In this document: piece by piece, positions 3,822-63,029 of the stretch
Layout of the letters: each line of letters begins with the position of its first letter
Numbering within the stretch: the stretch's first letter is position 1
From: an uncultured Actinomycetes bacterium
GTDB taxonomy: Bacteria; Actinomycetota; Thermoleophilia; RBG-16-64-13
DNA: 64,000 nt
Assembly (NCBI GenBank): GCA_937148845.1
Contig: CAKZRW010000066.1
Location: 92 to 64,091 of the forward strand
Reading direction: 5' to 3'
Notes under the pieces: generated by a model
Seen by the model: the letters and a program-made list of their open reading frames with translations, nothing else
Database searches by the model: none
Told to the model about the DNA's origin: nothing
Position numbers and translations under genes: made by a program

Positions 3822-3849
3822 GGATTCTCCGTTTTCCAGGCCCGATGCC

Positions 3850-4797
3850 CTACGCCCAAGGATCACGCATCTTGGTGATGTGCAAGTCAGCATCGGGAGA
3901 TCTGACATAGATGGGCCTGACGCTTTCAGGAGTGCCCGGGGCTCCCGGTCTGAGCGGCGCTACCTTGAGGTCATCGGCAAGAGCCTGGCCCAGCCAGGCA
4001 AGGGCGTCCACCCCGCCTTCCTCCCCTGCGGGCTCCTCCAACCACTCTTGGCCAACCAAGAGAAACTGAGGGCGTAGCAAAGAGTCGACCGCGGTCCAGC
4101 CAGCCGGGACCTCCACCGGGATGAAGTCAAGGTCACCCACAAGAATGCCGGTACCGGCCCGTTGCCCAAGTACATCGCTCAGAGCCCGGCGGTCGCAAAG
4201 AGCTATCGGGCCAGAGCGGCGCCAGGCCGGGAGGCTCACGTCGCTGCCTCTCCCTTGCCCCGCCCTGACCGCCTCGTAGATGGCATAGAACACCTGTCCC
4301 CGACGGGCATCAACGAACGGGACGATCGTGCCAGCCGAGGACGGGACGATCTTGTTGGCCAGCCCTTCCCCCTCCTCAGAGGCTGTTTCGGCAGACTCTT
4401 CACCAGACTGGACTCTTAGGGCAGCGACTGCTGCAAGCGCGCCCAGCGTATTCACCCCGACTACGGGACGGTCGAGAGCTAGGGCGAGAGCCCGAGCCAT
4501 CGCCACGGCGAGTCGCACCCCTGTGAAAGTCCCAGGCCCTATCCCGACCACCACAGCACCGATGTCGCCCGGCTCCGCGCCCATGCTGCACAAGAGCTCG
4601 TCGAGCGAGCGGACTAGACTACGCGCCTGGTTTTGTCCACCCGTGTCGAGGCGGTCGGCAAGCAGCCCCAGCGAGAACCGCCCCCCTCTGTGGCCGCCGC
4701 GATCGCCGCCCGACTCGCTGCTGCAGTCGTAAACAAACAGCGCCACCCCGCACGCCCGAGTGGAACTGTCCAAGGCTACCACCAGCCTCTCAGCCAC
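3850..4797 (-). CDS. tsaB: tRNA t6A37 complex protein TsaB (YeaZ) with low-complexity insertions
   Basis: LVVALDSSTRACGVAL and GIGPGTFTGVRL motifs. The GTG at 4797 is preceded by GGGAGG at 6-nt spacing and overlaps the tsaE stop. Confidence 0.8.
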   Translation of the reverse strand: MAERLVVALDSSTRACGVALFVYDCSSESGGDRGGHRGGRFSLGLLADRLDTGGQNQARSLVRSLDELLCSMGAEPGDIGAVVVGIGPGTFTGVRLAVAMARALALALDRPVVGVNTLGALAAVAALRVQSGEESAETASEEGEGLANKIVPSSAGTIVPFVDARRGQVFYAIYEAVRAGQGRGSDVSLPAWRRSGPIALCDRRALSDVLGQRAGTGILVGDLDFIPVEVPAGWTAVDSLLRPQFLLVGQEWLEEPAGEEGGVDALAWLGQALADDLKVAPLRPGAPGTPESVRPIYVRSPDADLHITKMRDPWA

Positions 4798-5251
4798 CAG
4801 CAGCCTCCCAGCGCGTTCTAGCCGCGTCGTCCATGGCCAAGATCTCGATAGCGCGTTCAAGCAGAGAAACGTGCTCCAGCCTCACCAGCCAAGAAGGGTC
4901 CCCCAGCCGCTCCGCCCCCACCTCCGGCCACTCGACCAGAGTCACGGCTCGATCGTCCCGATATTCCTCGAGCGCGAGGGCATCGTCGTCGGCAAGCGTT
5001 TCCAGACGGTATAAGTCTAGGTGCCTAACAATGAGGTCACCTCGGTAGATGTTGGCCAGAGTGAAAGACGGACTGCGGACGGGATCGCTGACCCTAAGAG
5101 CCTCCGCCACGGCTCGAACGAACGTGGTCTTACCCGAGCCCAGAGGCCCTAGCAAGAGCACCAAGTCTCCCGGGCGCAAGGCCCGGGCCAGGCGCCGAGC
5201 CGCTCTGGTAAGAACGGTCAGGCTCGCCCGAGAGTGGCTGTACACTACCAC
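4790..5251 (-). CDS. tsaE: tRNA t6A37 ATPase TsaE
   Basis: P-loop GPLGSGKTTF followed by SPSFTL..Y....HLDLYRL. Only the C-terminal part of ORF 4790..5674 is TsaE-like; the upstream part overlaps the UDG gene. The start (GTG 5251 or TTG 5266) is uncertain. Confidence 0.8.
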   Translation of the reverse strand: MVVYSHSRASLTVLTRAARRLARALRPGDLVLLLGPLGSGKTTFVRAVAEALRVSDPVRSPSFTLANIYRGDLIVRHLDLYRLETLADDDALALEEYRDDRAVTLVEWPEVGAERLGDPSWLVRLEHVSLLERAIEILAMDDAARTRWEAAGG

Positions 5252-7763: not shown

Positions 7764-7838
7764 CCATGAACACCTTACGACCACTTGCACCAGGGAGACC
7801 CCGCCATAGCCTTGATCCACACAGGAGGGGGAGGGCCT

Positions 7839-9125
7839 ATGAAACCAGTACTCCAGCTCGCTCTTGATTTCGTCGACCTTCCGCGCGCACTGCAGGTAGC
7901 CGAAGAGGCTGTCGCCGGAGGGGCGGACTGGCTCGAAGCCGGCACCCCCCTCATCAAGAGCGAAGGTCTCCAGGCTGTGCGTGAACTCAAGGCCCGCTGG
8001 CCCGACCATGTGATCGTCGCCGACATGAAGACCATGGACGCAGGTCGAGCCGAGGTGGAATACGCAGCCAAGGCAGGAGCCCGGGTAGTGGGGGTCCTGG
8101 GTGCCGCCTCGGATGCCACTATCCGCGAGTGTATCGAAGCGGCCCGCAACTACGGAGCCGAGATCGTTGTAGACATGATCCAGGTGGCAGACGTCGTGGA
8201 ACGGGCGAAAGCAGTCGAGGAGATGGGCGCGAGCTACATCGGCATCCACATCGCCATCGACGAGCAGATGCGTGGTCAGACGCCCTTTGCTCTGTTGGAG
8301 CAGGTCGCCCGGGCGGTCACCCTCCCCGTGGCCGTGGCAGGAGGTATCAACTCGGAGACGGCACCTCTTGCCATCCAGGCAGGGGCTAGCATCGTGGTGG
8401 TAGGAGGGGCGATCATAAAGGCCGCCGATGCTACAGCGGCCACCCGCACCATCAAGCAGGCCATGGAGACCCTGACCCCCGTCCGCTCGGAATACTTCGT
8501 CCGGGCCACCGGGCCCGATTTACGCGAGAAGCTTGCGCGAGTCTCAGCGGCGAACGTCTCCGACGCTCTCCATCGTGCAGGAGACATCCCCGGCCTCCAC
8601 CCCCTCACCCCCGGTTCCAAGCTGGTCGGGCCCGCTCTCACAGTGCGCACTTATGCCGGCGACTGGGCTAAACCCGTGGAAGCGATCGACAAGGCCGCCC
8701 CGGGGGACGTGATCGTGATCGACGCCGGGGGAATCGGGCCGGCGGTGTGGGGAGAGCTGGCCACCCACTCGGCCCTCCAGCGCAAGGTGGCCGGGGTGGT
8801 GATCTACGGTGCCGCCCGCGACAGTGGGGACATCCGGGCCCTTGGCTTCCCCTTGTTCTGTTCTCTGGTGTCCCCGACGGCAGGCGAACCTAAGGGCTTC
8901 GGGGAGATCGGGGTGCCCATACGTATTGCTGGAGTCCGGATTTGCCCGGGCGACTGGATCATCGGGGACGATGACGGAGTGTGCGTGATACCACGGGAGA
9001 AGGCGCTGGAATACACGAACCGGGCCATGGATGTCCTGGAAAGGGAGAACCGCTTGCGCAAGGAGATACAGGAAGGCAGTACCTTGAGCCAGGTGGGGTA
9101 TCTCCTCCGCTGGGAGAAGCGCTAG
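7839..9125 (+). CDS. Fusion of 3-hexulose-6-phosphate synthase-like (OMPDC family) and RraA-like domains
   Basis: The N-terminal half, MKPVLQLALDF....WLEAGTPLIK...VADMKTMDAG, is HPS-like. The C-terminal half, ANVSDAL...GPALTV...GDVIVIDAGG..AVWGEL...GVVIYGAARD, is RraA-like. GGAGGGGGAGGG lies upstream of the ATG at 7839. Confidence 0.8.
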   Translation: MKPVLQLALDFVDLPRALQVAEEAVAGGADWLEAGTPLIKSEGLQAVRELKARWPDHVIVADMKTMDAGRAEVEYAAKAGARVVGVLGAASDATIRECIEAARNYGAEIVVDMIQVADVVERAKAVEEMGASYIGIHIAIDEQMRGQTPFALLEQVARAVTLPVAVAGGINSETAPLAIQAGASIVVVGGAIIKAADATAATRTIKQAMETLTPVRSEYFVRATGPDLREKLARVSAANVSDALHRAGDIPGLHPLTPGSKLVGPALTVRTYAGDWAKPVEAIDKAAPGDVIVIDAGGIGPAVWGELATHSALQRKVAGVVIYGAARDSGDIRALGFPLFCSLVSPTAGEPKGFGEIGVPIRIAGVRICPGDWIIGDDDGVCVIPREKALEYTNRAMDVLERENRLRKEIQEGSTLSQVGYLLRWEKR

Positions 9126-12585: not shown

Positions 12586-13596
12586 CTAGCGCAGAGTGAG
12601 ATGCACCCCTGCCCCATCCTCGTTGCGGTGCAAGGTCCGGACGGTCCTCACTGCCTTACACCGCGAACAGATCACTAGCGTCTCCGTACAGACTCCCTCG
12701 CTGCGCCTTTCGACCCCCCGCAGGAAACGTCCCCCGGTGACGGCCGTGGCCACAAACACCACGCCCTCTCCCACCAAGTCGGTGGTGCTCAGTTTGGCTT
12801 CGAAATCTGCGAGACCGAACGACTGCAGCTCTTCCACCTGCCGCCGGGATACGGGCCAGAAACGCGCCTGGATGTGCCCACCCAGACCCCGTAGAGCGGC
12901 GGCCGCGATGACGGCCTCGATGGAGCCGCCGATGCCGATGCAGATGTCCACGCCTGCGTCCTTGACCGCGGCTGCCAGACCAGCCGAGATGTCCCCATCG
13001 GGGATAAGGCGCAGCCGGGCTCCTGCCTCCCTGATTTCCGCGCACAGCCGTTCGTGCCGTGGCCGGTCTAGCACGGCCACCACCAGCTCCTGCGTCGGCC
13101 GGTTCAACGCGATCGCCAGGTTCCGCAGGTTCTTGCCGACAGGTGCATCCAGATCGAGCGAGCCCTTGATCGAGCCGCCGGTCATGATCTTCTCCATGTA
13201 CATCTCAGGGACCGCTAGCAGACTACCGAGCGGCCCGGCCGCGAGCATCGAGAGTGCCCCCTCGGCTCCCCGAGCCAGCGGCTCTCTTCCCTCCAGGGGC
13301 AGCGTCACTATGTCCCACCCTTCCCCCGCATCCCCCCACTCTTGTCCCGCCCGGAGAGCCCCGGGCCCTCCCGACCCTTTGGTCGCTACCACTCGGGTCT
13401 TGACCGAAACCTGTGACAACGCCTCCGCCATGGCTGCCTGCGCAGCCAGGTCGGCCGCGACTCCGTCGCCCCGGCCCAGCCACTGCGCCGCGGCCAGGGC
13501 CGCAGCTTCGGTCACCGCCTGGAAGTGGCGGCAGCCACAAGAGACCTCAGGCCACACGGACGCCCTCTGCTTCCTCGATGACGTCGTACAACGCAT
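12586..13596 (-). CDS. GlpX-family (class II fructose-1,6-bisphosphatase-like) protein with a divergent active site
   Basis: VTEAAALAAAQWLGRGD, YMEKI, IPDGDI and GIGGS.E are GlpX-like, but conserved GEGE and VDP(I/L)EGT are replaced (see finding). The start (ATG 13596 or GTG 13557) overlaps the 2PGK stop. Confidence 0.75.
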   Translation of the reverse strand: MRCTTSSRKQRASVWPEVSCGCRHFQAVTEAAALAAAQWLGRGDGVAADLAAQAAMAEALSQVSVKTRVVATKGSGGPGALRAGQEWGDAGEGWDIVTLPLEGREPLARGAEGALSMLAAGPLGSLLAVPEMYMEKIMTGGSIKGSLDLDAPVGKNLRNLAIALNRPTQELVVAVLDRPRHERLCAEIREAGARLRLIPDGDISAGLAAAVKDAGVDICIGIGGSIEAVIAAAALRGLGGHIQARFWPVSRRQVEELQSFGLADFEAKLSTTDLVGEGVVFVATAVTGGRFLRGVERRSEGVCTETLVICSRCKAVRTVRTLHRNEDGAGVHLTLR

Positions 13597-14464
13597 CTAC
13601 GATGGACACCACCGTGTCATCGATGTTCACGTTGTCGACCACCAGCGTCCCTTCTCTTTCGGCCTGTTCCAGGATGAAATCCTGTATGCGGCGTATCTCG
13701 GAGAAGTTGCGCAAGTAACGAGCCACCGCTCGCTTACCGGCAGTCTCTTGTTCGCGGACCAACAGATGGCTGCGGTGCAGCTCCTCATCCTGGACTGACA
13801 CGACCAAGGGGAGCAGGAAGACCTCCGGCACCCTCTCCTTGGCCCCCATGGAGGCCAGCATGCCCGGCACCATATGTACACCTTCCACCACTATGCTCGT
13901 GTGCTCCTGGATGGAGCGGTCGATGATGGCAAGAACACCCACATTGACCATCTCCACCTGCTCCATGAAACCCAGCATGCGATGATCGACGTCGCCTCCG
14001 ACCGGGATGCGTACCGCGCGAGCCGCCTCGTAACTGGAGTAGTGGATAGCAGGCATCAGACTCTTGGAGAAGAATGCCCGCATGGCCTCCCGGATGGAGT
14101 CGGTGGAGATGATGCGCACGATGCCCAGTCGGTTGGCCAGACGCGCGGCAATGGTGCTCTTGCCCACCCCCGTGGCTCCCCCTATCAGGATCACCACGGG
14201 CTTATCCTCAGCGGCCACCTTGTTCCACAGCCGATATCTTTGCAGGTACCGATCCTCTCCCAGGCCGGCGAGCACGTTTTCCACCATCATGCGCAGATGG
14301 TCCAATCCCACTTCACTTCTGCCCGTCTGAGACAGACGACTCTCCACCTCGAGTGCCACCACGTAGGAGCGCTCCGGGGGAAGACCGGTCGAGGTCAAAG
14401 CAGTGGCCAGCAGCCCCTTGGAGAAGGGGACCTTATGACCCTCGCTCACGAGATGGATGATCAC
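13547..14464 (-). CDS. 2-phosphoglycerate kinase (ATP-cone + P-loop kinase)
   Basis: N-terminal ATP-cone-like segment, then VVILIGGATGVGKSTIA and RIISTDSIRE, which I recognise as the 2PGK family of methanogens. Confidence 0.75.
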   Translation of the reverse strand: MIIHLVSEGHKVPFSKGLLATALTSTGLPPERSYVVALEVESRLSQTGRSEVGLDHLRMMVENVLAGLGEDRYLQRYRLWNKVAAEDKPVVILIGGATGVGKSTIAARLANRLGIVRIISTDSIREAMRAFFSKSLMPAIHYSSYEAARAVRIPVGGDVDHRMLGFMEQVEMVNVGVLAIIDRSIQEHTSIVVEGVHMVPGMLASMGAKERVPEVFLLPLVVSVQDEELHRSHLLVREQETAGKRAVARYLRNFSEIRRIQDFILEQAEREGTLVVDNVNIDDTVVSIVDALYDVIEEAEGVRVA

Positions 14465-22268: not shown

Positions 22269-22601
22269 TCAGCGCAAACAGTTCACGTACCTGTGCAGCA
22301 GAGAGAAAGCGCGCTCGAACGCGCTCGGGTCCATACTGGGGCCCATTTCCTCGCGAAGGCACTCCCGAAGATGGTGAGCGATCAGGTGCGCCCCCACCCC
22401 GTCAAGAGCGGAGCGCACTGCAGCAAGTTGGGTGAGGATCTGCTCGCAGTCCTTGCCTTCCTCCAGCATGCGCCTCAGACCTCGCACCTGGCCTTCCACC
22501 CGGGCCAGACGATGGAGGATGCGCGAAGGATCCTGTTCCCCGTTGTACTCGCTCGCACCGTGCCCGCTTGCACCGTGCCTCTCGCTGGGCCGCTCGTCCA
22601 C
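22269..22601 (-). CDS. csoR: CsoR/RcnR family metal-sensing repressor
   Basis: RLARVEGQVRGL..M.E....C..ILTQ..AV..AL......HHL..C. The GTG at 22601 follows GGAGGG. The rest of ORF 22269..22805 overlaps the tRNA. Confidence 0.8.
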   Translation of the reverse strand: MDERPSERHGASGHGASEYNGEQDPSRILHRLARVEGQVRGLRRMLEEGKDCEQILTQLAAVRSALDGVGAHLIAHHLRECLREEMGPSMDPSAFERAFSLLHRYVNCLR

Positions 22602-22775
22602 AGTGCCAGCCCTCCTACCTACCCTGCTGCCCCAGCTTGCCCTGGTTGCCTCATGATACCCCAGGGGGTACCGTGGAGCAAGCCCATTGAATGAGGAGGG
22701 CCGAGCAAGACCAGAGCAAGCTGAACAATGCGGGTCAGACTCAAGGCAGAGGAAGCGGCGACCGCACAAAAAAGG

Positions 22776-22848
22776 AGCGGAGTACGGGATTCGAACCCGC
22801 GACATCCAGCTTGGGAAGCTGGCACTCTACCAACTGAGTTAACTCCGC
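22776..22848 (-). tRNA. tRNA-Gly (anticodon CCC)
   Basis: Hand-folded cloverleaf with acceptor GCGGAGT/ACTCCGC, D arm ACTC/GAGT, and anticodon arm CCAGC-TTCCCAA-GCTGG. The T arm is GCGGG-TTCGAAT-CCCGT. CCA is not encoded. Confidence 0.9.
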
Positions 22849-53694: not shown

Positions 53695-54600
53695 ATGAAC
53701 ACTGCCCTTGATACACCAGCCCGGGCAAGCGGTATGGAGAGCCTACGATCTGTGACTGGCAGAGCCCGTCGGCAAGGCGCGTTGTGCCCCGCCTGGCCCT
53801 CTCCTCTGGCCATGCCCTTCTTGCTCGGGACTGTGCTACTGCTTCTCGTGGGGGCGGCTCTCTTCTCTGCCTGTAAAGCGGAGACTTCCGTCACGAGCGC
53901 CGGCTCCCCGGGCTCGCAAGCTGTCTCAGCCACCGAACCCGAGCCAACCGCCCGGGAGGTGGAGTTCACTAGCACGGACGGCCTACGGTTGAGCGGCCGC
54001 TTGTTCGGCTCAGGTAACAGGGGCGTGGTACTTGCCCACATGTATCCGGCTGACCAGACCAGTTGGGCTGAGACCGCCACCCGCTTGGCAGAAGAGGGCT
54101 ATCTCGTCCTTACCTTCGATTTTCGCGGCTACGGCGATTCGCAGGGCGACCGCGACATCGCCCATCTCGACCGCGACGTCATGGGAGCCGTCACCTATCT
54201 ACGTACTCAGGGAGCAACCGAGCTCGCCCTGATCGGGGCTTCCATGGGGGGTACCGCCTGCCTCATAGCCGCCGACCAAGCCCAGCTACTTTCCAGCATC
54301 CGACTCGCGGGAGTAGCGGCTCTGTCCGCACCCGTCGAATTCAAAGGCTTGTGCGCGGCTAGTGCCGTACCAAGGTTGGTGGTGCCTCTCCTTCTTATTG
54401 CTGCAGAAAGAGACGTCGGGGCTGAGGGGGCCCAGGCCTTGGCAGCTTTGGCAACCACGAGTGGCGACGCCGAGGTAGGTAGAGTCCAGCTGCACCTCCT
54501 CCCGGGAAGCGACCACGGCACCAATCTCCTCACAGGCGACCAAGGAGAGACCGTGTACTCCCTGCTCCTAAGCTTCCTGGAGGTCACCCTAGGGAAGTGA
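53695..54600 (+). CDS. Secreted/lipoprotein alpha/beta hydrolase
   Basis: Signal with LFSAC lipobox, DFRGYGDS, GASMGG. A paralogue of the 21397 gene. The start may be the ATG at 53734 or 53812. Confidence 0.7.
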   Translation: MNTALDTPARASGMESLRSVTGRARRQGALCPAWPSPLAMPFLLGTVLLLLVGAALFSACKAETSVTSAGSPGSQAVSATEPEPTAREVEFTSTDGLRLSGRLFGSGNRGVVLAHMYPADQTSWAETATRLAEEGYLVLTFDFRGYGDSQGDRDIAHLDRDVMGAVTYLRTQGATELALIGASMGGTACLIAADQAQLLSSIRLAGVAALSAPVEFKGLCAASAVPRLVVPLLLIAAERDVGAEGAQALAALATTSGDAEVGRVQLHLLPGSDHGTNLLTGDQGETVYSLLLSFLEVTLGK

Positions 54601-54824
54601 CCCCGGCCCGCGACAGCTTCCGGCGCCGAGCCCGAGTAGGCCGCCTGCGCGAGCAATTGGCCGACAGGCCCGCGGGCCGGTGGTCTCCTGCCTCGGGGTT
54701 AGCCGGCAGTCCATCTGGGGAAATCCAGTGGGAAGTACTAGGCGATCGGCCTAATCCAAGACAAGCGACCGAATGGTCGGCGCCGCCGACACGGCCCCGG
54801 GCAGACCCCGTTGAAGGAGACGGC

Positions 54825-55226
54825 ATGAGACCTACGCACGCACCAGGCTGGCTGGTCCTGGGATTTTTCTTGGTACTCTTCCTCCCGCTTCTTGCGGCTG
54901 GCGGCTGCGGGGATTCCCAAACGACGACCACACTGGCGACCACCTCCGGCAGTGGCGAGACTTCGAACCCGACCCCAGGGGAGCAGACCTTCACCTTAGA
55001 GCAACTGGCCAAGTTCGACGGCAAGGACGGACGGCCCGCCTACGTGGCCGTCGACGGCATCGTCTACGACGTCTCCACCAGCCTGAGCTGGCAAGAGGGG
55101 ACTCATTCGCGCTGCAACCTAGGCGCCTCGGCCGGGAGAGATCTTTCCGAACTCATCAAGCAGGCCCCGGCTAGCATGCGCGGACTCCTGGCCCGTATGC
55201 CCGTGGTGGGGAAGCTCGTCGAGTAG
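54825..55226 (+). CDS. Lipoprotein with a cytochrome b5-like heme/steroid-binding domain
   Basis: Lipobox LAAGGC, Thr/Ser linker, FTLEQLAKFDGKDGRPAYVAVDGIVYDVS. AAGGAG lies 6 nt before the ATG. Confidence 0.75.
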   Translation: MRPTHAPGWLVLGFFLVLFLPLLAAGGCGDSQTTTTLATTSGSGETSNPTPGEQTFTLEQLAKFDGKDGRPAYVAVDGIVYDVSTSLSWQEGTHSRCNLGASAGRDLSELIKQAPASMRGLLARMPVVGKLVE

Positions 55227-55290
55227 GCCAGCCGGGTGACGAAAGTAGCGGCCATAAGTATTTCCGCCCCCAGACTTGCGTGAGCGCCCG

Positions 55291-55965
55291 ATGAGTCGAC
55301 AGGCGTGTACCGGTTGGGCCCGCCGGCTCTTCCAGTCACTCTTTGTCCTTGCTGGCCTCGCCCTCCTGGCCGTGCCCCCCGTAGTCATCACCCTTTCCGG
55401 CACCGCCGGGGCGGATCCGCTGTGGACCTTCCTGCGCCTGGTCGGACTCGAGGCATTCATGGTTCTGTTTCTCAATCTGGTCTTGGGCGCCTATCGACCT
55501 TTCCTGGCCCGCCTCGCCAGACCGCGTCCCCTCCAGCGGCTGCACCTCTTGGCCGGGATCGCAGCGTTCGCCCTCGCCCTCAGTCACGGGGCGTCTGTGT
55601 TCATCTTCGGCATCCTGGGCTACCCCACCCACGGACTCTGGATCGGACCCGGCGTGCTCGTCGCTCTCTTCGTAACCATCGCCTCCGCCTTGCTCAGAAC
55701 CAGACTGGCGAGCTACTGGCGCTATCTACACCGTCTGAACTACGCTCTTTTCTTGGCCGCTCTCGCCCATGCTGTGATCCTGGGGACCGACCTCCGCTCC
55801 AACCGTGTCCTTCTCGCCTGCGCTCTGCTCTTTGCAGTGGTCGCCGCCTGCGGTCTCGCTTATAGGCTCCTGCGCACACGGCTGTCCTCTAGGCAGGCCC
55901 GGCCCCCTAGTCGCTCCCCCGGGCCAGGCCCGAGCTCTGCCGAGGAGCCGTCACTCGAGTCATAA
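55291..55965 (+). CDS. Ferric-reductase-like (YedZ/MsrQ-type) transmembrane heme protein
   Basis: Six TM helices with paired His (LHLLAG...SHG and YLHRLNY...AHAV). Confidence 0.7.
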   Translation: MSRQACTGWARRLFQSLFVLAGLALLAVPPVVITLSGTAGADPLWTFLRLVGLEAFMVLFLNLVLGAYRPFLARLARPRPLQRLHLLAGIAAFALALSHGASVFIFGILGYPTHGLWIGPGVLVALFVTIASALLRTRLASYWRYLHRLNYALFLAALAHAVILGTDLRSNRVLLACALLFAVVAACGLAYRLLRTRLSSRQARPPSRSPGPGPSSAEEPSLES

Positions 55966-56027: not shown

Positions 56028-56486
56028 ATGATGAACCAAGAGGCCGAGCCGAAGCCGCCGACTTCCTCCTCCCGACGGATGAGGCGCGAGAAGCAGACGG
56101 TGACCCTTATGATCCAGCTTTACTGCCGAGACCACCATGGCGGGCCGCTTTGTGCCGAGCGCTCAGCGTTGTTGACTTATGCCCTGACCAGAGTGGACGC
56201 CTGTCCCTTCGGCGCCGACAAACCGGTGTGCTCCCGCTGCCTAGTCCACTGTTACCGACCGACTATGCGCGAGCGTATCCGGGAAGTCATGCGCTACGCC
56301 GGGCCACGCATCACCCGCCACCACCCATATCTGGCCCTGCGGCACCTGCTTGACCGCCGCAAGCCGCCCCGGAGACGGGACCAAGACGGAGCCGCCCCGG
56401 TTTCGAACCTCCAAGACCAGGGAACCAACCATGACGAAGCGCCGCTCGCCGGCAAGCCTGGAGCCGACCCCTCTCAACCGCGATAA
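56028..56486 (+). CDS. Nitrous-oxide-stimulated promoter (YgbA-like) family Cys-rich protein
   Basis: REKQTV..MI..YC...H....LC..C..L..YA..R...CPFG..KP.C..C..HCY motif string. Confidence 0.7.
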   Translation: MMNQEAEPKPPTSSSRRMRREKQTVTLMIQLYCRDHHGGPLCAERSALLTYALTRVDACPFGADKPVCSRCLVHCYRPTMRERIREVMRYAGPRITRHHPYLALRHLLDRRKPPRRRDQDGAAPVSNLQDQGTNHDEAPLAGKPGADPSQPR

Positions 56487-56537: not shown

Positions 56538-56780
56538 ATGACTGAAGAGCTGCAGCCCGCCCAAACCCTGGACTGCATCGGGCTGCTATGCCCTGAGCCC
56601 CTCTTCCGCACTCGGCAGACCATCGACCAACTCAAGGACGGAGAGATCCTTGAGGTGCTGGCCGATGACCCAGCCGCCGAGGGCGACTTGAATCGCTTTG
56701 CCAAGCGCACGGGCAATGAGATAGTGAAGGTAGAGCACGAAGAAGATCATGTGCGGATACTCATCCGCAAGAAGGGTTGA
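56538..56780 (+). CDS. TusA/SirA-like sulfur carrier
   Basis: LDCIGLLCPEPL (CPxP motif), 80 aa. Confidence 0.85.
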   Translation: MTEELQPAQTLDCIGLLCPEPLFRTRQTIDQLKDGEILEVLADDPAAEGDLNRFAKRTGNEIVKVEHEEDHVRILIRKKG

Positions 56781-56800: not shown

Positions 56801-58000
56801 ATGAAGACAGAGCACCCGGCCAGGGACCGACCCCTGGTCTATCTCGATTATCAAGCAGCCAAGCCTGTCGACCCCCGCGTCGTGGAGGCTATGCTGCCGT
56901 ATTTCACGGAGCGGTTCGCCAATCCCGCCTCGCTTCACACCATGGGGGACGAGGCGGCCGAGGCGATGGAGAGCGCTCGCCGCACCATCGCCGCTTTCAT
57001 CAATGCCAGGCCGGAGGAGATCATCTTCACATCCGGAGCTACCGAGTCCAACAACCTGGCCCTGGTCGGTTACGCCTTGCGCAACCGGCGCAAAGGCAAC
57101 CACATAGTGATATCCGAGATGGAGCACATCTCCATCCACAACCTTGCCAAGTACCTGGAGAAGAACGGTTTCGAGGTCTCCCGCATCCCCCTCGACCTCT
57201 ACGGCCGGGTGGATCCGGCCAAGGTCCGCGCGCGCATCCGTGACGACACCATCCTGGTATCCGTGGGCATGGCCAGCAACGAGATAGGCACCCTGCAACC
57301 CATCCGCGAGATCGGGGAGCTCCTGCAGGGAAAGGGCATCGCTTTCCACACTGATGCGGTGGCGGCGGAGGGACTGCTGCCGCTGGACGTCGAACGGGAT
57401 CACCTCGATCTCATGAGTCTGTCCTCCAACGATATCTACGGGCCGCGGGGGCTCGGCGTGCTCTATGTCCGCAAGGGCATCCCTCTTACTCCCCTCATGA
57501 TTGGCGGCGGTCAGGAGAACGGGCTGCGCTCGGGCTCTGAGAATGTCGCTGCCATCGTGGGCATGAGTCGGGCCGCCGAGATCATGAGGGAAGAAAGAGA
57601 GCAGGAGGTAGCTCGCCTGCGCACTTTGCGCGACCGCCTGATTGAAGGCGTGCTCGCTACGGTGCCCAAGTCCTTCCTGAACGGACATCCCAGCGCACGC
57701 TTGGCTAACAACGCCCATTTCCGCTTCACAGGGATCGAGGGCGAATCCCTGGTTCTTCTGCTCCGCGACGAAGGCATCCAAGCTGCTACCGGCTCAGCCT
57801 GTTCGTCGAAGACCCTCGAGCCTTCGCATACGCTCATCGCCTGCGGCTTGCTCCACGAAGAGGCCCACGGCTCCTTGGAGCTCACCCTGGGCCGCTTCAC
57901 TCGCCCCGAGGACATCGAGGCCGCCCTGGAGGCGGTTCCTCGAGCGGTTAGACGACTGCGCCAGCTCTCCCCGCTTTACAAGGAGGAGGTTCCCTCATGA
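56801..58000 (+). CDS. IscS/NifS-like class V aminotransferase-fold protein lacking the PLP lysine
   Basis: GATESNN, FHTDAV and ATGSACSS (Cys loop) are present, but the canonical S-G-H-K is S-S-N-D (57422-57433). Confidence 0.85.
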   Translation: MKTEHPARDRPLVYLDYQAAKPVDPRVVEAMLPYFTERFANPASLHTMGDEAAEAMESARRTIAAFINARPEEIIFTSGATESNNLALVGYALRNRRKGNHIVISEMEHISIHNLAKYLEKNGFEVSRIPLDLYGRVDPAKVRARIRDDTILVSVGMASNEIGTLQPIREIGELLQGKGIAFHTDAVAAEGLLPLDVERDHLDLMSLSSNDIYGPRGLGVLYVRKGIPLTPLMIGGGQENGLRSGSENVAAIVGMSRAAEIMREEREQEVARLRTLRDRLIEGVLATVPKSFLNGHPSARLANNAHFRFTGIEGESLVLLLRDEGIQAATGSACSSKTLEPSHTLIACGLLHEEAHGSLELTLGRFTRPEDIEAALEAVPRAVRRLRQLSPLYKEEVPS

Positions 58001-58833
58001 AATCCACCAGCTACTCTGAGAAGACCCTCGATCACTTCCGCAATCCCCGCAATGTCGGTGTGCTGGAAGGCGACGACGTTGCCATCGGTCGAGTCGGCAA
58101 CCCGGTCTGTGGAGATCTCATGGAGATGTACATCCGTGTCCGGGACGACCGTATCGAGGACATCAAATTCCAGACCTTCGGCTGCGGCTCGGCAGTGGCC
58201 ACCAGCAGTATGATCACCGAGTTGGTCAAGGGCATGACCCTGGACGAAGCTCTCAAGGTCACCCGGAGCGACGTGGCGGACGCCCTGGACGGTCTTCCCC
58301 CCATCAAGATGCACTGCTCCAACCTGGCTGCCGATGCTCTGCATGACGCCATCAACAACTGGCGACAAGGTATCAAGCTGGAGCCCATGGATCCTTTGGC
58401 GGTGCCTGCCAAAGCCTGTGGGCCTCAGGCCCCGGCCGCACCAGCCGCGACTGAAGCGGCGCCGGCGGTCGCCGAGCCCGCCGGCGCGGATGACTACCTC
58501 GGGAAAGGCTACTACCGTAGCCGGCCCGATCCAGCGCACTTGCAGGACCTGCGCCTGCTCGTAGTCGACGCCGGGCCAGACTCGTTGGCCTACGCTCTTG
58601 AGGCAGCCGGGCAGGCCGCGCGGGTGGTTTTTCTGTCACCTGCCGCCTACCTTCCCGGCGACGCCGACCTCAAAGCCCGGGCTAAACAGTCCGACCTCAA
58701 GATCCTTCTACGCAGTGAGCCGCTTGCGCTCGGCGGGGAAGGCGTCTTGGAGAAGATCCGCGTCCATGACCTCGACGAGGACGAGGAGTACGAGCTGTTC
58801 GTGGACGCCGTGGTGTTCTTGACCAAGTCCTGA
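57997..58833 (+). CDS. IscU-type Fe-S scaffold fused to a degenerate thioredoxin-reductase-like NAD(P)-domain fragment
   Basis: GNPVCGD, FGCGSAVA and LPPIKMHCS form the IscU domain. An Ala/Pro linker follows, then ~110 aa alignable to the TrxB NADPH domain without CxxC or GxGxxG. Confidence 0.85.
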   Translation: MKSTSYSEKTLDHFRNPRNVGVLEGDDVAIGRVGNPVCGDLMEMYIRVRDDRIEDIKFQTFGCGSAVATSSMITELVKGMTLDEALKVTRSDVADALDGLPPIKMHCSNLAADALHDAINNWRQGIKLEPMDPLAVPAKACGPQAPAAPAATEAAPAVAEPAGADDYLGKGYYRSRPDPAHLQDLRLLVVDAGPDSLAYALEAAGQAARVVFLSPAAYLPGDADLKARAKQSDLKILLRSEPLALGGEGVLEKIRVHDLDEDEEYELFVDAVVFLTKS

Positions 58834-58879: not shown

Positions 58880-60367
58880 TCAGTGGGCCAGCGAGCGCAG
58901 TCGCTCCAGAATGCGGACCAGGGCCAGCGTGTCAGTAGCGCAGTAACCACGCAGGTCGGCGAAGACCTGTTCGCGCTCCTCCTCCCCAAGCTGGCCATGC
59001 ACGGCCTGGGCCCACCGCAGACTGGCCACGTCGCCGCTTGATACTGCCAAACCCTGGTAACAAAGATCGGGTACCAAGGCCGGCAGGACATACTTGAGGG
59101 AAGTCCGTCCGCGAAAGCCAGGGTGCTGCACGTACTCGCGGATCACCTGCTCCAAATCGAACAGTCGGCCCTGCACCGCGACCAGCCGCGGAGCCAGGTC
59201 GGGTACTTCGGGAAGCAGTGACTCGATCAGCCGCCGTTCAAAGGAAGTGTACACGACAATAGGTCCTTGACCTTCGACCGCCTCCAGCAGGCTCTCGGCG
59301 AAGGGGCGACGGGGGTCGCTACTGTCGGTGTGGAGAAACCCCCGGTGGCGCAGATCCCCATCCAGGACGTGGCACGACCACTGCACCGGCACCGGCTGAT
59401 ACGGACGGGTCCGCGGATAGAGCGGCACCGCGGGACCGAAGGTCTCGAAGCCAAGGAAGTAAAGGGGCTCGTCAAGGACCTCCAGCACCTCAGCCAGGCC
59501 GGGCGCTATCCGTAGCTCCCTCGTGCGTGCGAGATAACAGAGGGTGCGTTGCCGCGCAGTGAGGCCCGGAAAGTCCAGCGGGACATCACGCAAGGAGTAG
59601 TAGCCGCTCGCGATCAGCGCGTCGAGGACATCCTCGCTTACACGGGGGAGTTCGGTGACCGCGTATTCAGGAAGAAACTCGTGGCAGCGACCATAGTAGT
59701 AACGGCACGGATACGGGTCCTCGCAGCGTCTTCCGATGGGAACTTGAGGCTGGGGCCCCAAGAGCATCCGCCGCATCCCGGCAAGAAGCTCGGGAATCTG
59801 GGGCAGCAGGACCGCCACTTCGGCGGTCAGGTCGACCTCGACGAAAAGCTCGCCGAGATCGTAGGGTCCCCCGGGCCACTCGTAACCCGTGTTGAGGTGA
59901 ACAAGGCGAGCGCTGGAAACGGGGACGCCCGCCCCGGAGAGGACATAGGCCTGGATGGCGAGGTCGGGCAGGTGTTCATCCTTGGCGGAGGCCGAAGACT
60001 TGACCTCGAGAAGCACCCATTCATCGAGGTCTTCGCGGAACAGGATGTCGGCCCGAACCAGTACCCCGTCGTGAGCGAAAGCCCCCTCATACAGGCAGTC
60101 CACCCCTTCAGCGAGCAGCCGCCGGGTAGTGCCGACCGCCTGCCAGCTCTGAGTGTGATCCTCCTCTACCAATATCCCGCCTGCGTAGCGTTCGCGGGCC
60201 AGCGCCCCGACCAGATGCCCCTGGTCGAAGAGAGCTTGGCTTGCTTCATCGACAGGATCGGCAAGACCAGGCTCATGGCAATCGAGCCACAAGGACTTCG
60301 GGCACCGCAGGCCGCTCAGGAACCGGGTCTTGGAAAGACGTGGCGAGATCTTGGCGCTCATGAACAT
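58880..60367 (-). CDS. DUF2779 family protein (PD-(D/E)XK nuclease N-domain + RNase-H-like C-domain)
   Basis: LSKTRFLSGLRCPKSLWL, ...ADIL......LLEVKSS... and a C-terminal exonuclease-like region. Confidence 0.65.
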   Translation of the reverse strand: MFMSAKISPRLSKTRFLSGLRCPKSLWLDCHEPGLADPVDEASQALFDQGHLVGALARERYAGGILVEEDHTQSWQAVGTTRRLLAEGVDCLYEGAFAHDGVLVRADILFREDLDEWVLLEVKSSASAKDEHLPDLAIQAYVLSGAGVPVSSARLVHLNTGYEWPGGPYDLGELFVEVDLTAEVAVLLPQIPELLAGMRRMLLGPQPQVPIGRRCEDPYPCRYYYGRCHEFLPEYAVTELPRVSEDVLDALIASGYYSLRDVPLDFPGLTARQRTLCYLARTRELRIAPGLAEVLEVLDEPLYFLGFETFGPAVPLYPRTRPYQPVPVQWSCHVLDGDLRHRGFLHTDSSDPRRPFAESLLEAVEGQGPIVVYTSFERRLIESLLPEVPDLAPRLVAVQGRLFDLEQVIREYVQHPGFRGRTSLKYVLPALVPDLCYQGLAVSSGDVASLRWAQAVHGQLGEEEREQVFADLRGYCATDTLALVRILERLRSLAH

Positions 60368-60419: not shown

Positions 60420-63029
60420 TTAGACCCTGGACGCACCCAGCACTAGACGAAGACGTTCCGCCAGCGCCGTGAGGGTGTACGGCTTTTGGATGAAGCCGGC
60501 CAGGCCCTTACCGGCGAAGCGGCTGGCCACGTCGTTTTCCATGTAGCCACTGGACAGGATCACCCGCACCCCCGTGTCGAGTCGGCGAAGCTCGCGGAAA
60601 GTCTCCTCGCCGTTCATATGCGGCATGGTCAAGTCGAGCAGAACGACTCTGATGTCTCGACTCCGCGTTCGATAGAGTTCGACCGCTTCCCGACCGTCCG
60701 CCGCCGTGATGACGTCGAAACCAAGAGTCTCCAGCATGCGCTTCCCCAGGGCGCGGATAGTCTCCTCATCGTCTACCAGGAGAATGGTCCCTTCCCCTCT
60801 CCAGCCAGAGGCGATCTCGACCTGCTCCTGCCGCAGGGTCTCCTCGGCCGCCGCTGCCGGGAAAAGCACCTTGAAAGTGGTGCCTCTGCCCGGCTCGCTA
60901 TAGACCTTAATGGCGCCTTTATGAGCCCGGACTATGCCCAGCACCGCCGCCAGTCCCAGCCCACGGCCTCCGGCCTTGGTGCTGAAGAAGGGCTCGAACA
61001 AGCGGCCCAGGGTCTCCCTGCTCATGCCCACCCCGGTGTCCGAAACCTCCAACGTCACGTACAGACCTGCGGGCAAGTCCTCGTCAAGGTAGGTGCTCCG
61101 CAGGTAGTCCCGGGTGCATTCCATAGCCCCGGCAGAGATAGTGATCACCCCGCTTCGTTCGCCGATGGCCTCGGACGCGTTGAGCACCAGGTTCATGACC
61201 ACCTGGTCGATCTGGCTGGGATCGCCCAGTACGGACGGAAGGTTCTTCTCCAAGTTGAGGTTCAGGAGAATCTTCTTGGAGATGACGCTTGATAACAAGT
61301 GCACCATGTTGCCGATAAGTTCCACCAGGTCGACAGCCTCCGCCTGTATGTGTCCGCGACCGGAGTAAGCCATCATCTGGCGACAGAGTTCGGCTGCTCG
61401 GTGAGCAGCGTTGGCGATCTCCTGGAGGTCTTCGCGGGCGGGCGACCCCGGCGGAAGCTCTGCCTGCGCCAGTTCGGCGTGGCCCAGGATAGCCATGAGT
61501 ATGTTGTTGAAATCATGAGCGATGCCCCCTGCCAGCCTGCCCAGACTCTCCAGCCGCTGACTGTGTTGTAGCTGGCCCTCCAATCTCCGCCGGTCAGCCT
61601 CTGCCCGCTTCCGCTCGCGTATATCACGCACGATGACCTGCACGTGTTCCCGGTCCTCCACGAGGAAACGCCGCACGCTCACCTCCACCGGGACCTCCTC
61701 CCCGTCCTTGCGCACATGGGTGGCCTCGCGCACGTAGGCGTCTGTTTCCTCGAGAAGGCGCAGAACCTCAGCGACCGCCTCCGCGTCGTTCGCGGCGAGC
61801 AAGTCGACTAACTTCAGGCGGAGTAGTTCTTCCGGCGAGTACCCATAGAGCTCGACCGCCCGCTGGTTCGCCTCGAGGATGTGCAAGTCAGCGTCGGCCA
61901 ACAGTATGGCGTCGTTCGCCTGGCGCACGAGGTGCTCGAAGCGCAAGAGCAGGGCTTCGCGCGCACGCTGCGCCCGATAGGCGTCCTCGTAGCGTCTCTT
62001 GAGCGTGCGCTGCCACGCCGTCCCCCCTACCCCCACCATGGCTGCCACCAGCACCAGACTCGCCACCAACAGGGGCACGGATCGGGCCCGCGCTTGGCCC
62101 AGGACCTCTGATTTGTCTATCTTGGCCACCATGAACCAGGGGGAATCAGAAATCGCCCCCAGGGCCGCAAAGACCGGGGTGCCTCGGTAGTCCACCCCTT
62201 CGATGATCCCGTTGACTCCTGAGACGGCCTGTACCGCTGGTAGGTCAGTCCGGGTAAGGGGCACTCGCAGAGTGAGAGCAGTACCCGTCTGGTGCCGCAG
62301 TTCGTTCAAGAACAGCACGTGGTCCCCGTCGCGGCGCACCAGGAGGGTCTCGCCGCTCGGGCTGGCCGTGGGCCAGGTTTGGATGAGGGGGAAGAGAAAG
62401 CTGTTTGCCTCTTCCGATAAGATCACGGCCCCCAGCCGCCACCTCACTCCACCCTTCTCAGCAAACAGTGGAGCAATGGCGTCGACATGGATGATATCCC
62501 CATCCCCCTTGTGGAGATCGGTAAGTACCGCGCGGTTTTCTGTCAGCGCCGCCGCCAGGTCGGTGGCCATCTCCGGCCCGATGGTCCCCAATCTCCCCGT
62601 GAGACTCCACAGTACCCGGCCGCCCGCATCCACCAGCCGGACATCCGAGTAAGACCGCCCCACTCGCAGACTGTCCAGCCAGGCTGCCAGCACGCGCTGC
62701 ACAGATTCGGAGGGCGATTCCAGCCACCTTGCTACCAGCTCACTGGCGAGAGGGTTGGCCGAGATATGAGCCGCGTCGGCGAGTCGTTCTGCCCGCCAGG
62801 ACTTGATCTGATCGGCCTTGAGCCTTCCGACGGCAAGCAGGTCTTGCTCAGCGTCCTCGCGAGCATCACGGTTCTGGTCCACATACAGCCACACGCCAGC
62901 AGCAATGACGGCCAGAGCCAGAACGGCCACCAGGATCACGGGCCAGAACCGATGAGGAAACAGGGAGTCGTCTCGCAGCCGGTCCCGACTCCTGCTTGCC
63001 ACCCGCGGCCTCTCGCCCCCTGTGCTCAC
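60420..63029 (-). CDS. Hybrid sensor histidine kinase/response regulator with an extracytoplasmic sensor and PAS
   Basis: TM helix, ~280-aa periplasmic domain, TM helix, PAS, H-box IAHDFNNIL, HATPase N/G boxes, REC domain (LLVDDE...DLTMPHMNG). Confidence 0.88.
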   Translation of the reverse strand: MSTGGERPRVASRSRDRLRDDSLFPHRFWPVILVAVLALAVIAAGVWLYVDQNRDAREDAEQDLLAVGRLKADQIKSWRAERLADAAHISANPLASELVARWLESPSESVQRVLAAWLDSLRVGRSYSDVRLVDAGGRVLWSLTGRLGTIGPEMATDLAAALTENRAVLTDLHKGDGDIIHVDAIAPLFAEKGGVRWRLGAVILSEEANSFLFPLIQTWPTASPSGETLLVRRDGDHVLFLNELRHQTGTALTLRVPLTRTDLPAVQAVSGVNGIIEGVDYRGTPVFAALGAISDSPWFMVAKIDKSEVLGQARARSVPLLVASLVLVAAMVGVGGTAWQRTLKRRYEDAYRAQRAREALLLRFEHLVRQANDAILLADADLHILEANQRAVELYGYSPEELLRLKLVDLLAANDAEAVAEVLRLLEETDAYVREATHVRKDGEEVPVEVSVRRFLVEDREHVQVIVRDIRERKRAEADRRRLEGQLQHSQRLESLGRLAGGIAHDFNNILMAILGHAELAQAELPPGSPAREDLQEIANAAHRAAELCRQMMAYSGRGHIQAEAVDLVELIGNMVHLLSSVISKKILLNLNLEKNLPSVLGDPSQIDQVVMNLVLNASEAIGERSGVITISAGAMECTRDYLRSTYLDEDLPAGLYVTLEVSDTGVGMSRETLGRLFEPFFSTKAGGRGLGLAAVLGIVRAHKGAIKVYSEPGRGTTFKVLFPAAAAEETLRQEQVEIASGWRGEGTILLVDDEETIRALGKRMLETLGFDVITAADGREAVELYRTRSRDIRVVLLDLTMPHMNGEETFRELRRLDTGVRVILSSGYMENDVASRFAGKGLAGFIQKPYTLTALAERLRLVLGASRV

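Follow-up and report, generated by a model that had tools for sequence, protein, structure and literature searches.

An IscS homologue without the Schiff-base lysine, linked to TusA and IscU in an uncultured actinobacterium: a candidate module for cysteine-independent iron-sulfur cluster assembly

What role is left to an IscS homologue that has lost the Schiff-base lysine of its active site? The question is raised by a gene at 56801..58000 (+ strand) of a 64,000-nucleotide stretch of DNA from an uncultured Actinomycetes bacterium (contig CAKZRW010000066.1); the whole of this stretch is called the window here. The product of 399 aa, an IscS/MisS-like protein, aligns with cysteine desulfurases, reads aspartate at the position of the lysine (Asp-type, as distinct from the Lys-type relatives that keep it) and is encoded between the genes of a TusA-family sulfur carrier and an IscU scaffold. 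The identity of the protein is secure, and it is the mechanism that has to be inferred. The reading preferred here, to which a probability of roughly 0.55 may be given, is that the Asp-type IscS would be a non-catalytic component of an iron-sulfur (Fe-S) assembly module that is independent of cysteine and is fed by a TusA relay.

A prediction made earlier from the nucleotide sequence (hereafter the original prediction) had placed the open reading frame (ORF) among the cysteine desulfurases, and this placement holds. The product carries a class-V aminotransferase domain (Pfam PF00266, E 1.2e-71), the motifs SGATESNN, FHTDAV, RSGSEN, GSACSS, and DLMSLSSNDIYGPRG are all found in it, and the class-V fold is supported by full-length alignment to the structures of IscS, NFS1, and NifS. 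Where cysteine desulfurases have S-G/S-H-K, the window protein reads SSND, and the codons tcc tcc aac gat at 57422..57433 (+) are confirmed as those of S208, S209, N210, and D211. With Escherichia coli IscS as the reference, S208 corresponds to S203 and is kept, N210 takes the place of H205, and D211 that of the Schiff-base lysine K206. The top match among solved structures is IscS2 of Archaeoglobus fulgidus (4eb5/4hvk, phmmer E 1.8e-143; we take its gene to be AF_0564), which is 57% identical to the window IscS (tblastn) and shares the segment ISSNDIYGPKG without change; the next match in the PDB is 4r5f, an engineered D199K mutant of the same A. fulgidus protein. The NCBIfam equivalog cut-offs are all missed by the window IscS, i.e., those of NifS (TIGR03402, 463 against 530.75), IscS (TIGR02006, 391 against 643), and NF010611 (399 against 548). 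Annotation pipelines give the Asp-type proteins the name ‘cysteine desulfurase,’ a label that is probably wrong.

The aspartate is not a product of misalignment or of a damaged gene. The segment around D211 is gap-free in alignments to 4eb5 and to active desulfurases (9wer and others), which places D211 exactly on the Schiff-base lysine position without a shift of register. Likewise, in an alignment with E. coli and A. fulgidus IscS, D211 falls on K206. A column-by-column comparison of the clades found no gained lysine anywhere in the Asp clade (39-sequence alignment), and together with the gap-free alignments this rules out both a register shift and a compensating lysine. A sequencing error or a pseudogene is ruled out as well, since the change from Lys (AAR) to Asp (GAY) takes two base changes and the ratio of nonsynonymous to synonymous substitution rates (dN/dS) lies at 0.05-0.19. 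The individual values for the window gene are 0.045 against a 96%-identical relative, 0.086 against a metagenome-assembled genome (MAG) of Gaiellales, and 0.19 against one of Thermoplasmata. Purifying selection on the gene is strong, and it is not decaying. The protein was found identical on 5 contigs, and among its 120 closest database homologues (67-100% identical) the motif is SSND in 118 and SAND in 2.

The loss of the lysine is accompanied by others, of which the original prediction had overlooked that of the substrate arginine, as it had a tusA gene 20 bp upstream and an extra domain of IscU. Residues were compared across the window protein, E. coli IscS, A. fulgidus IscS2, 14 other Asp-type, and 8 Lys-type sequences. 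The Asp-type proteins jointly have, in E. coli numbering, A for Q183, N for H205, D for K206, and one of E, L, V, and Q for R354, whereas the Lys-type sister sequences retain all these residues. The losses at 183, 205, 206, and 354 are common to the window protein, A. fulgidus IscS2, and all Asp-clade sequences compared. In the window protein, A188 (57362..57364, +) occupies the position of Q183, which is lost throughout the Asp clade, and E360 (57878..57880, +) that of R354, a position with R in the Lys clade and E/L/V/Q in the Asp clade. In IscS structures, H205 and Q183 are cofactor contacts, and R354 holds the substrate cysteine by its alpha-carboxylate. A protein that lacks the Schiff-base lysine, two further cofactor contacts, and the substrate arginine would not desulfurate cysteine, and the window IscS looks, judging from these residues, unable to bind or activate it. 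In a scan of the 39-sequence alignment, the only columns that separated the Asp from the Lys clade were positions 106, 183, 205, and 206.

Other parts of the active site are kept in the Asp- and Lys-types alike. They include G74, A75, T76, H104, N155 (with few exceptions), D180, S203, and the loop cysteine Cys328, which is C334 of GSACSS in the window protein (57800..57802, +) and is present in all homologues compared. With this set of residues, the window IscS seems capable of binding a pyridoxal-type cofactor without a covalent bond, in the way that A. fulgidus IscS binds pyridoxamine 5'-phosphate (PMP). It may be asked, then, whether the protein is still an enzyme, running a reaction of PMP or pyridoxal 5'-phosphate (PLP) that needs no Schiff-base lysine or acting on a substrate other than cysteine. 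The conservation across the Asp clade of T76, H104, N155, D180, and S203, which hold the ring and the phosphate of the cofactor, the isolation of A. fulgidus IscS with PMP, and the strong conservation of the gene (dN/dS ~0.05-0.19) would all fit with this. Such an enzyme nevertheless appears improbable: the position of the substrate-carboxylate arginine has no conserved substitute residue in the Asp clade, neither a compensating lysine nor any gained invariant residue besides S106 is present, no activity was detected for the A. fulgidus protein, and the cofactor may serve folding or dimer stability alone. One Methanobacteriota MAG (L003 10001-11161) reads SSNA in place of SSND, which implies that Asp is no absolute requirement at the position once held by lysine.

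The A. fulgidus protein is the only Asp-type IscS to have been studied; one further case noted in the accessible literature is IscS1 of Methanosarcina acetivorans. As isolated, A. fulgidus IscS contains non-covalent PMP, and it was modelled with PLP in its complex with IscU (PMC8918507). No cysteine desulfurase activity was detected for it (PMC8918507). The original prediction had described this protein as having Asp for the lysine, lacking desulfurase activity, and binding no PLP; the first two points stand, and the third has to give way to the non-covalent PMP. The D199K variant still carries PMP and not lysine-bound PLP (PMC8918507), which the loss of four residues, rather than of the lysine only, may explain. 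By homology to this protein, the window IscS would be catalytically inactive too. The proposal that the bacterium carries the A. fulgidus non-desulfurase type is in good agreement with the 57% identity, the same SSND and changes at 183, 205, and 354, and the position of the two proteins in one clade. The likeness to the A. fulgidus complex (PDB 4eb5, 4eb7, 4hvk; D199K, 4r5f) extends to the kept loop cysteine and cofactor-holding residues and to an IscU gene directly downstream with all its ligands.

In the A. fulgidus structure, a [2Fe-2S] cluster on IscU has the loop cysteine of IscS as its fourth ligand (PMC8918507; PMC13066941). The claim of the original prediction that such a protein still supports cluster assembly is borne out by structural and in vitro work, but not by complementation in vivo. 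The A. fulgidus iscS2U2 genes did not complement E. coli under anaerobic conditions, even with 5 mM sulfide, whereas A. fulgidus sufCB did (bioRxiv 10.1101/2024.03.20.586028). The authors of that study, who termed A. fulgidus IscS1/2 ‘exceptional,’ ask what it is that iscS2U2 lacks (bioRxiv 10.1101/2024.03.20.586028). Neither the adjacent dsrE nor tusA was included in their test (bioRxiv 10.1101/2024.03.20.586028).

The Asp-type is not confined to A. fulgidus, an archaeon. The host of the window gene is a bacterium: the housekeeping genes of the window (Rho, GroEL, ArgRS, TsaD/TsaB, PanC, HisG, Fpg, and Udg) are bacterial, and the nearest genome, at 85% identity, is a MAG from an uncultured member of Gaiellales (Actinomycetota). 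Among species-representative genomes, the relatives at or above ~53% identity are nearly all SSND (one is SSNA), and those at or below 52% are nearly all SSHK or SAHK. The bacterial hosts of the Asp-type include Thermoleophilia, Coriobacteriia, Thermodesulfobacteriota, WOR-3, Aerophobetes, Acidobacteriota, Clostridia, and Krumholzibacteria, and the archaeal hosts Bathyarchaeia, Asgard archaea, Methanobacteriota, and Thermoplasmata. The hosts of the nearest Lys-type group are chiefly Thermoplasmatales and Patescibacteria. A neighbour-joining tree of 40 sequences, calculated without support values (no bootstrap, no maximum likelihood), moderately supports the Asp-type proteins as one clade that includes A. 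fulgidus IscS2, is spread over numerous phyla of archaea and of anaerobic bacteria, and stands apart from the Lys-type. Within it, Bathyarchaeia and A. fulgidus are deepest and the crown consists of bacteria and archaea intermixed; the pair formed by the window and Gaiellales sequences is sister to a Thermoplasmata/Methanobacteriota group and not to other Actinomycetota. This pattern suggests a single origin of the Asp-type followed by transfer between the domains. The ‘ancient’ system of the original prediction needs a qualification, as it seems to have reached the window lineage by horizontal transfer and not by vertical descent from ancient times. The Asp-type forms a large clade that spans both domains under purifying selection, and the iscS gene taken alone is a new bacterial member of this known type. 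As a separate observation, the Krumholzibacteria IscS (L021 76-1230) falls inside the Bathyarchaeia group of the tree and shares the short cassette found there, with no DsrE and no C-terminal domain of IscU; this looks like a transfer from an archaeon to a bacterium.

If the Asp-type IscS is unable to make a persulfide, the sulfur must come from elsewhere, and the genes linked to iscS offer candidates. Directly upstream, tusA (56538..56780, +) encodes an 80-aa TusA-family sulfur carrier (Pfam TusA, E 1.8e-24) with Cys18 in a CPEP motif (codon at 56589). It stops 20 bp before the start of iscS, and the two genes are probably co-transcribed. The best PDB matches of the window TusA are E. coli TusA (1dcj) and the IscS-TusA complex (3lvj), and the 39 cassette TusAs compared all share C19, R27, D45, and D51 (E. 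coli numbering). Its NCBIfam score is below the TusA equivalog cut-off (63 against 78), which makes it a member of the TusA family and not a TusA equivalog. Of the Asp-type loci, 35/37 have a TusA gene no more than 1.5 kb upstream, against 0/17 of the Lys-type loci (tblastn of fetched loci; Fisher p 3.6e-12, a value uncorrected for phylogeny, as the loci are not phylogenetically independent and 2 of the 37 are the window's own contigs). The two Asp-type loci without a near TusA, i.e., one Bathyarchaeota locus and A. fulgidus, have it a few kb off.

Similarly, 23/37 Asp-type loci, against 0/17 Lys-type loci, have a gene of the DsrE family (120 aa, Pfam PF02635) between tusA and iscS. Its product has an invariant active-site Cys, matches 3mc3 (SSO1125) best in the PDB (E 7.7e-10), and scores 36 bits with the NCBIfam DsrE2 model, the cut-off of which is 210. 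SSO1125 is counted among the archaeal DsrE3A proteins (Tanabe et al.). A DsrE-like gene with 48% identity to the cassette form is also present directly upstream of A. fulgidus iscS2.

In the relay that we propose, the IscS would be a structural partner of IscU which supplies the fourth, cysteine ligand of the cluster, and the sulfur would arrive as protein-bound sulfane sulfur that passes from TusA to the loop cysteine of IscS and then to IscU; in most relatives the DsrE3-like carrier would take part as well. A relay from TusA (and DsrE) toward IscS/IscU is suggested by the linkage of both genes to the dead type of IscS only. The model also builds on two known interactions. E. coli TusA docks on IscS with its Cys19 at ~4 Å from Cys328 (PMC2854127), and sulfur transfer from DsrE3A to TusA has been demonstrated (PMC4175335). 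The resemblance to the E. coli IscS-TusA-TusBCD relay (3lvj) is that IscS, TusA, and a DsrE/TusD superfamily member are encoded together in the cassette, and the Cys-Pro-x-Pro motif and D45/D51 of TusA are kept, so that a homologous docking surface is plausible. In E. coli, the persulfide is formed by an active IscS and handed to TusA for tRNA thiolation, whereas the IscS of the cassette would form none. The interface differs too: the E. coli contact between W45 of IscS and F58 of TusA is D45/R58 in every crown-group cassette. Position 45 of IscS is variable, in contrast, in the Lys-type sisters that lack TusA, and the exchange, a point in favour of the relay, is suggestive only.

The main rival to the relay is the use of free sulfide alone. 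The IscS(Asp)-IscU pair would then be a scaffold that builds clusters from environmental or metabolic sulfide, and TusA would be an acceptor (for tRNA thiolation or the molybdenum cofactor) or a regulator of complex formation instead of a donor. Sulfide is the published hypothesis for A. fulgidus IscS (Pagnier et al., PMC8918507), the Minimal Iron-Sulfur (MIS) and SUF-like Minimal (SMS) systems have been reviewed as sulfide-capable (PMC13066941), and TusA is indeed an acceptor in E. coli, where it competes with IscU for IscS. What weakens this account, however, is that E. coli was not complemented by A. fulgidus iscS2U2 at 5 mM sulfide, in a test that sufCB passed. An acceptor role would also leave unexplained why TusA is linked to the dead IscS and not to its active sisters, and without a desulfurase there would be no persulfide for TusA to take. 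On this balance, the use of free sulfide alone seems rather unlikely.

Several observations weigh against the relay itself. The sulfur flow in E. coli is the reverse, from IscS to TusA, and IscU and TusA compete for IscS (PMC2854127). Further, the R31 by which E. coli TusA bridges to E49 and D52 of IscS is replaced by D or E in the TusAs of the cassette while position 52 of IscS is still acidic, and such an inversion without a matching change in IscS means that the interface is not identical to that of E. coli. Gene linkage as such gives neither the direction of sulfur flow nor the source of the sulfur. None of the accessory genes is universal: A. fulgidus TusA is encoded ~6 kb away and not, as in the window, directly upstream of iscS, and the DsrE-like gene present in A. 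fulgidus was not found anywhere in the window (tblastn) and is absent from the 96%-identical relative as well. The inactivity of the window IscS, in turn, is deduced from a homologue of 57% identity.

The gene downstream bears on what the cassette is for. The window IscU (57997-58833) has 278 aa, about twice the usual length, and consists of two domains with a linker between them. The first, an IscU/MisU scaffold domain (57997..58380, +; Pfam NifU_N, E 1.6e-46), has a start codon that overlaps the stop of iscS (ATGA), and iscU is translationally coupled to iscS. In the PDB, it is closest to Methanothrix IscU (7c8m) and A. fulgidus IscU (4eb5_C). The essential residues of IscU, i.e., Y3, C37, D39, C63, K103, H105, C106, and the LPPIK motif, are all present, and for this reason Fe-S assembly would be its natural function. 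This has to be set against a further possibility, namely that the cassette serves to detoxify, store, or signal reactive sulfane sulfur, which it would handle or sense with the cysteines of IscU and IscS as sulfur sinks and with no Fe-S assembly. Dissimilatory sulfur trafficking is the process from which proteins of the TusA and DsrE families are best known, and a part in the detoxification of reactive sulfur species has been proposed for DsrE4 (PMC11094781); in the window lineage, moreover, a gene of the YgbA family, which is named for a nitrous-oxide-stimulated promoter, lies upstream. Against the complete set of residues for de novo cluster assembly, the [2Fe-2S] cluster bound by the A. fulgidus complex, and the lack of sulfur-oxidation or -reduction genes nearby in the window, this possibility is very slight.

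A Pro/Ala-rich linker (58381..58488, +; read from the translation, and poorly aligned among the sequences compared) leads to a C-terminal domain of ~115 aa (58489..58833, +), which is a relic of the NAD(P)H subdomain of thioredoxin reductase (TrxR) according to a profile search, an AlphaFold2 model, and Foldseek. The domain (residues ~165-278) had no Pfam match, and a single-sequence search of the PDB gave E 0.01 at best. A profile of 22 sequences, in contrast, matched 2zbw (E 1.9e-15) and 3lzw (E 6.5e-12) over the NAD(P)H subdomain. The AlphaFold2 model has a predicted local distance difference test score (pLDDT) of 95, and its top Foldseek matches are the NADPH domains of TrxR and AhpF at template-modelling (TM) scores of 0.88-0.90. 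Thus, the domain has the fold of, and detectable sequence homology to, the NAD(P)H subdomain of thioredoxin reductase and TrxR-like ferredoxin-NADP reductase (2zbw, 3lzw, 3f8p). It differs from these enzymes in having no flavin adenine dinucleotide (FAD) domain, no CxxC, and indeed no cysteine at all, in carrying DxGxxS (VVDAGPDS in the window) in place of the nucleotide motif GGGxSA, and in its fusion to IscU, which occurs in the cassette only. HRR, which we take to be the 2'-phosphate motif of TrxR-type enzymes, is not found in it either. These features suggest that the domain has lost its function as part of a reductase; it probably no longer binds nucleotide, and docking or another accessory task is its most likely role. 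The acidic motif HDLDEDEEYELFVDA hardly varies among these domains; that this acidic patch binds iron would be pure speculation.

Like TusA, the C-terminal domain follows the type of IscS: it is encoded at 28/40 Asp-type loci and at 0/16 of the Lys-type. It is rare, with 57 representatives in a set of 1.84 billion proteins, and is C-terminal in every case. A. fulgidus IscU, at 153 aa, is without it. Three apparently free-standing copies (P0298, P0299, and P0307) are probably frameshift artefacts, as iscS is also split there and the cassette context is unchanged. In the ENA assemblies ERZ25039503 and ERZ25039477 (L081, L082, L083), the cassette is divided into short ORFs, probably by indel errors, which results in spurious stand-alone proteins in the database. 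A 112-aa ORF that follows iscU in A. fulgidus was considered as a stand-alone form of the domain and ruled out, since it is an unrelated protein that resembles helix-turn-helix (HTH) regulators; it has a CxxC at the C-terminus.

Besides the A. fulgidus pair, the closest known systems include the MIS system MisS-MisU (Garcia et al., 2022, as reviewed in PMC13066941), in which iscS- and iscU-like genes are adjacent without HscAB, Fdx, and IscA. [quoted passage not shown] Correspondingly, no hscBA, fdx, or iscA was found in the 64 kb window or in ~6 kb beyond it, and the ORFs scanned in the window and the genes called just beyond included no SUF, SMS, canonical IscS, or second class-V aminotransferase. 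The system as described in this review has two genes and its MisS is treated as a cysteine desulfurase (PMC13066941), whereas here MisS appears dead from its sequence and three to four genes make up the unit (TusA, the DsrE-like gene in some cases, and the IscU fusion). The DsrE3A-TusA thiosulfonate/persulfide carriers of sulfur oxidizers (Metallosphaera cuprina; SSO1125, 3mc3) are another parallel, in that the cassette DsrE-like gene adjoins TusA and its Cys is conserved; the context of the cassette, however, is not an sHdr or Dsr sulfur-oxidation cluster, and the window has no such gene.

A description of the TusA/DsrE linkage, the four-residue signature, or the IscU fusion was not found in the accessible literature, a coverage to which Garcia et al. 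(2022) does not belong. The cassette with its coordinated active-site loss is apparently a distinct and undescribed variant of the minimal iron-sulfur cluster (ISC) system. It bears on an open question, namely the sulfur supply of anaerobes with ‘minimal’ Fe-S systems, and TusA, the DsrE3-like carrier, and the IscU fusion domain are concrete candidates to be added to complementation and in vitro assays. In its widest form, the proposal would be that TusA, the DsrE3-like carrier (in most lineages), the Asp-type IscS, and IscU with the TrxR relic make up a self-contained, cysteine-independent Fe-S machine that is widespread in anaerobes and forms a distinct, unrecognised subtype, with sulfane sulfur relayed from TusA/DsrE and with the accessories as the parts missing from failed ‘minimal ISC’ reconstitutions. 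All of this taken together is tentative and has somewhat less than an even chance of being right.

The surroundings of the cassette vary with the lineage. A Cys-rich ygbA-like gene (56028..56486, +; Pfam YgbA_NO, E 4.7e-40) lies 52 bp upstream of tusA in the window; it is also found near the cassette in the Gaiellales relatives L001 and L076 and not in other lineages. In the Gaiellales lineage alone, it may head the operon. Immediately before the cassette, a protein with a cytochrome-b5-like domain and a lipoprotein-type signal peptide is encoded at 54597-55226, followed at 55276-55965 by a polytopic His-rich membrane protein with no Pfam match; a homologue of the cytochrome-b5-like protein is located ~1.2 kb downstream of the cassette in an Aerophobetes MAG (L019 4381-4602). 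The A. fulgidus locus (AE000782 506338-519486) has a gene with an iron-dependent repressor domain and FeoB fragments upstream of dsrE-iscS2-iscU, and the TusA gene ~6 kb off adjoins a Pyr_redox_2 flavoprotein. Convergent with the window cassette are a DUF2779/RecB-like nuclease family protein (58880-60367) and a large PAS-histidine kinase-receiver hybrid (60420-63029), the genes of which are found at the same positions in close relatives.

Some other genes of the window are unusual in their architecture. For example, a RimI-like GNAT acetyltransferase is fused to TsaD at 2226-3908, and a TsaB-like gene (3850-4860) overlaps it by ~60 bp. Similarly, a domain of the orotidine monophosphate (OMP) decarboxylase/HUMPS family is fused with an RraA-like aldolase domain at 7785-9125. 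A 400-aa ORF at 12596-13798 has no Pfam match and a GC content by codon position of 0.56/0.64/0.76 against ~0.67/0.45/0.75 in its neighbours, and it may not be a real gene. At 22269-22805, a CsoR-type metal-sensing repressor domain follows an N-terminal extension of ~90 aa.

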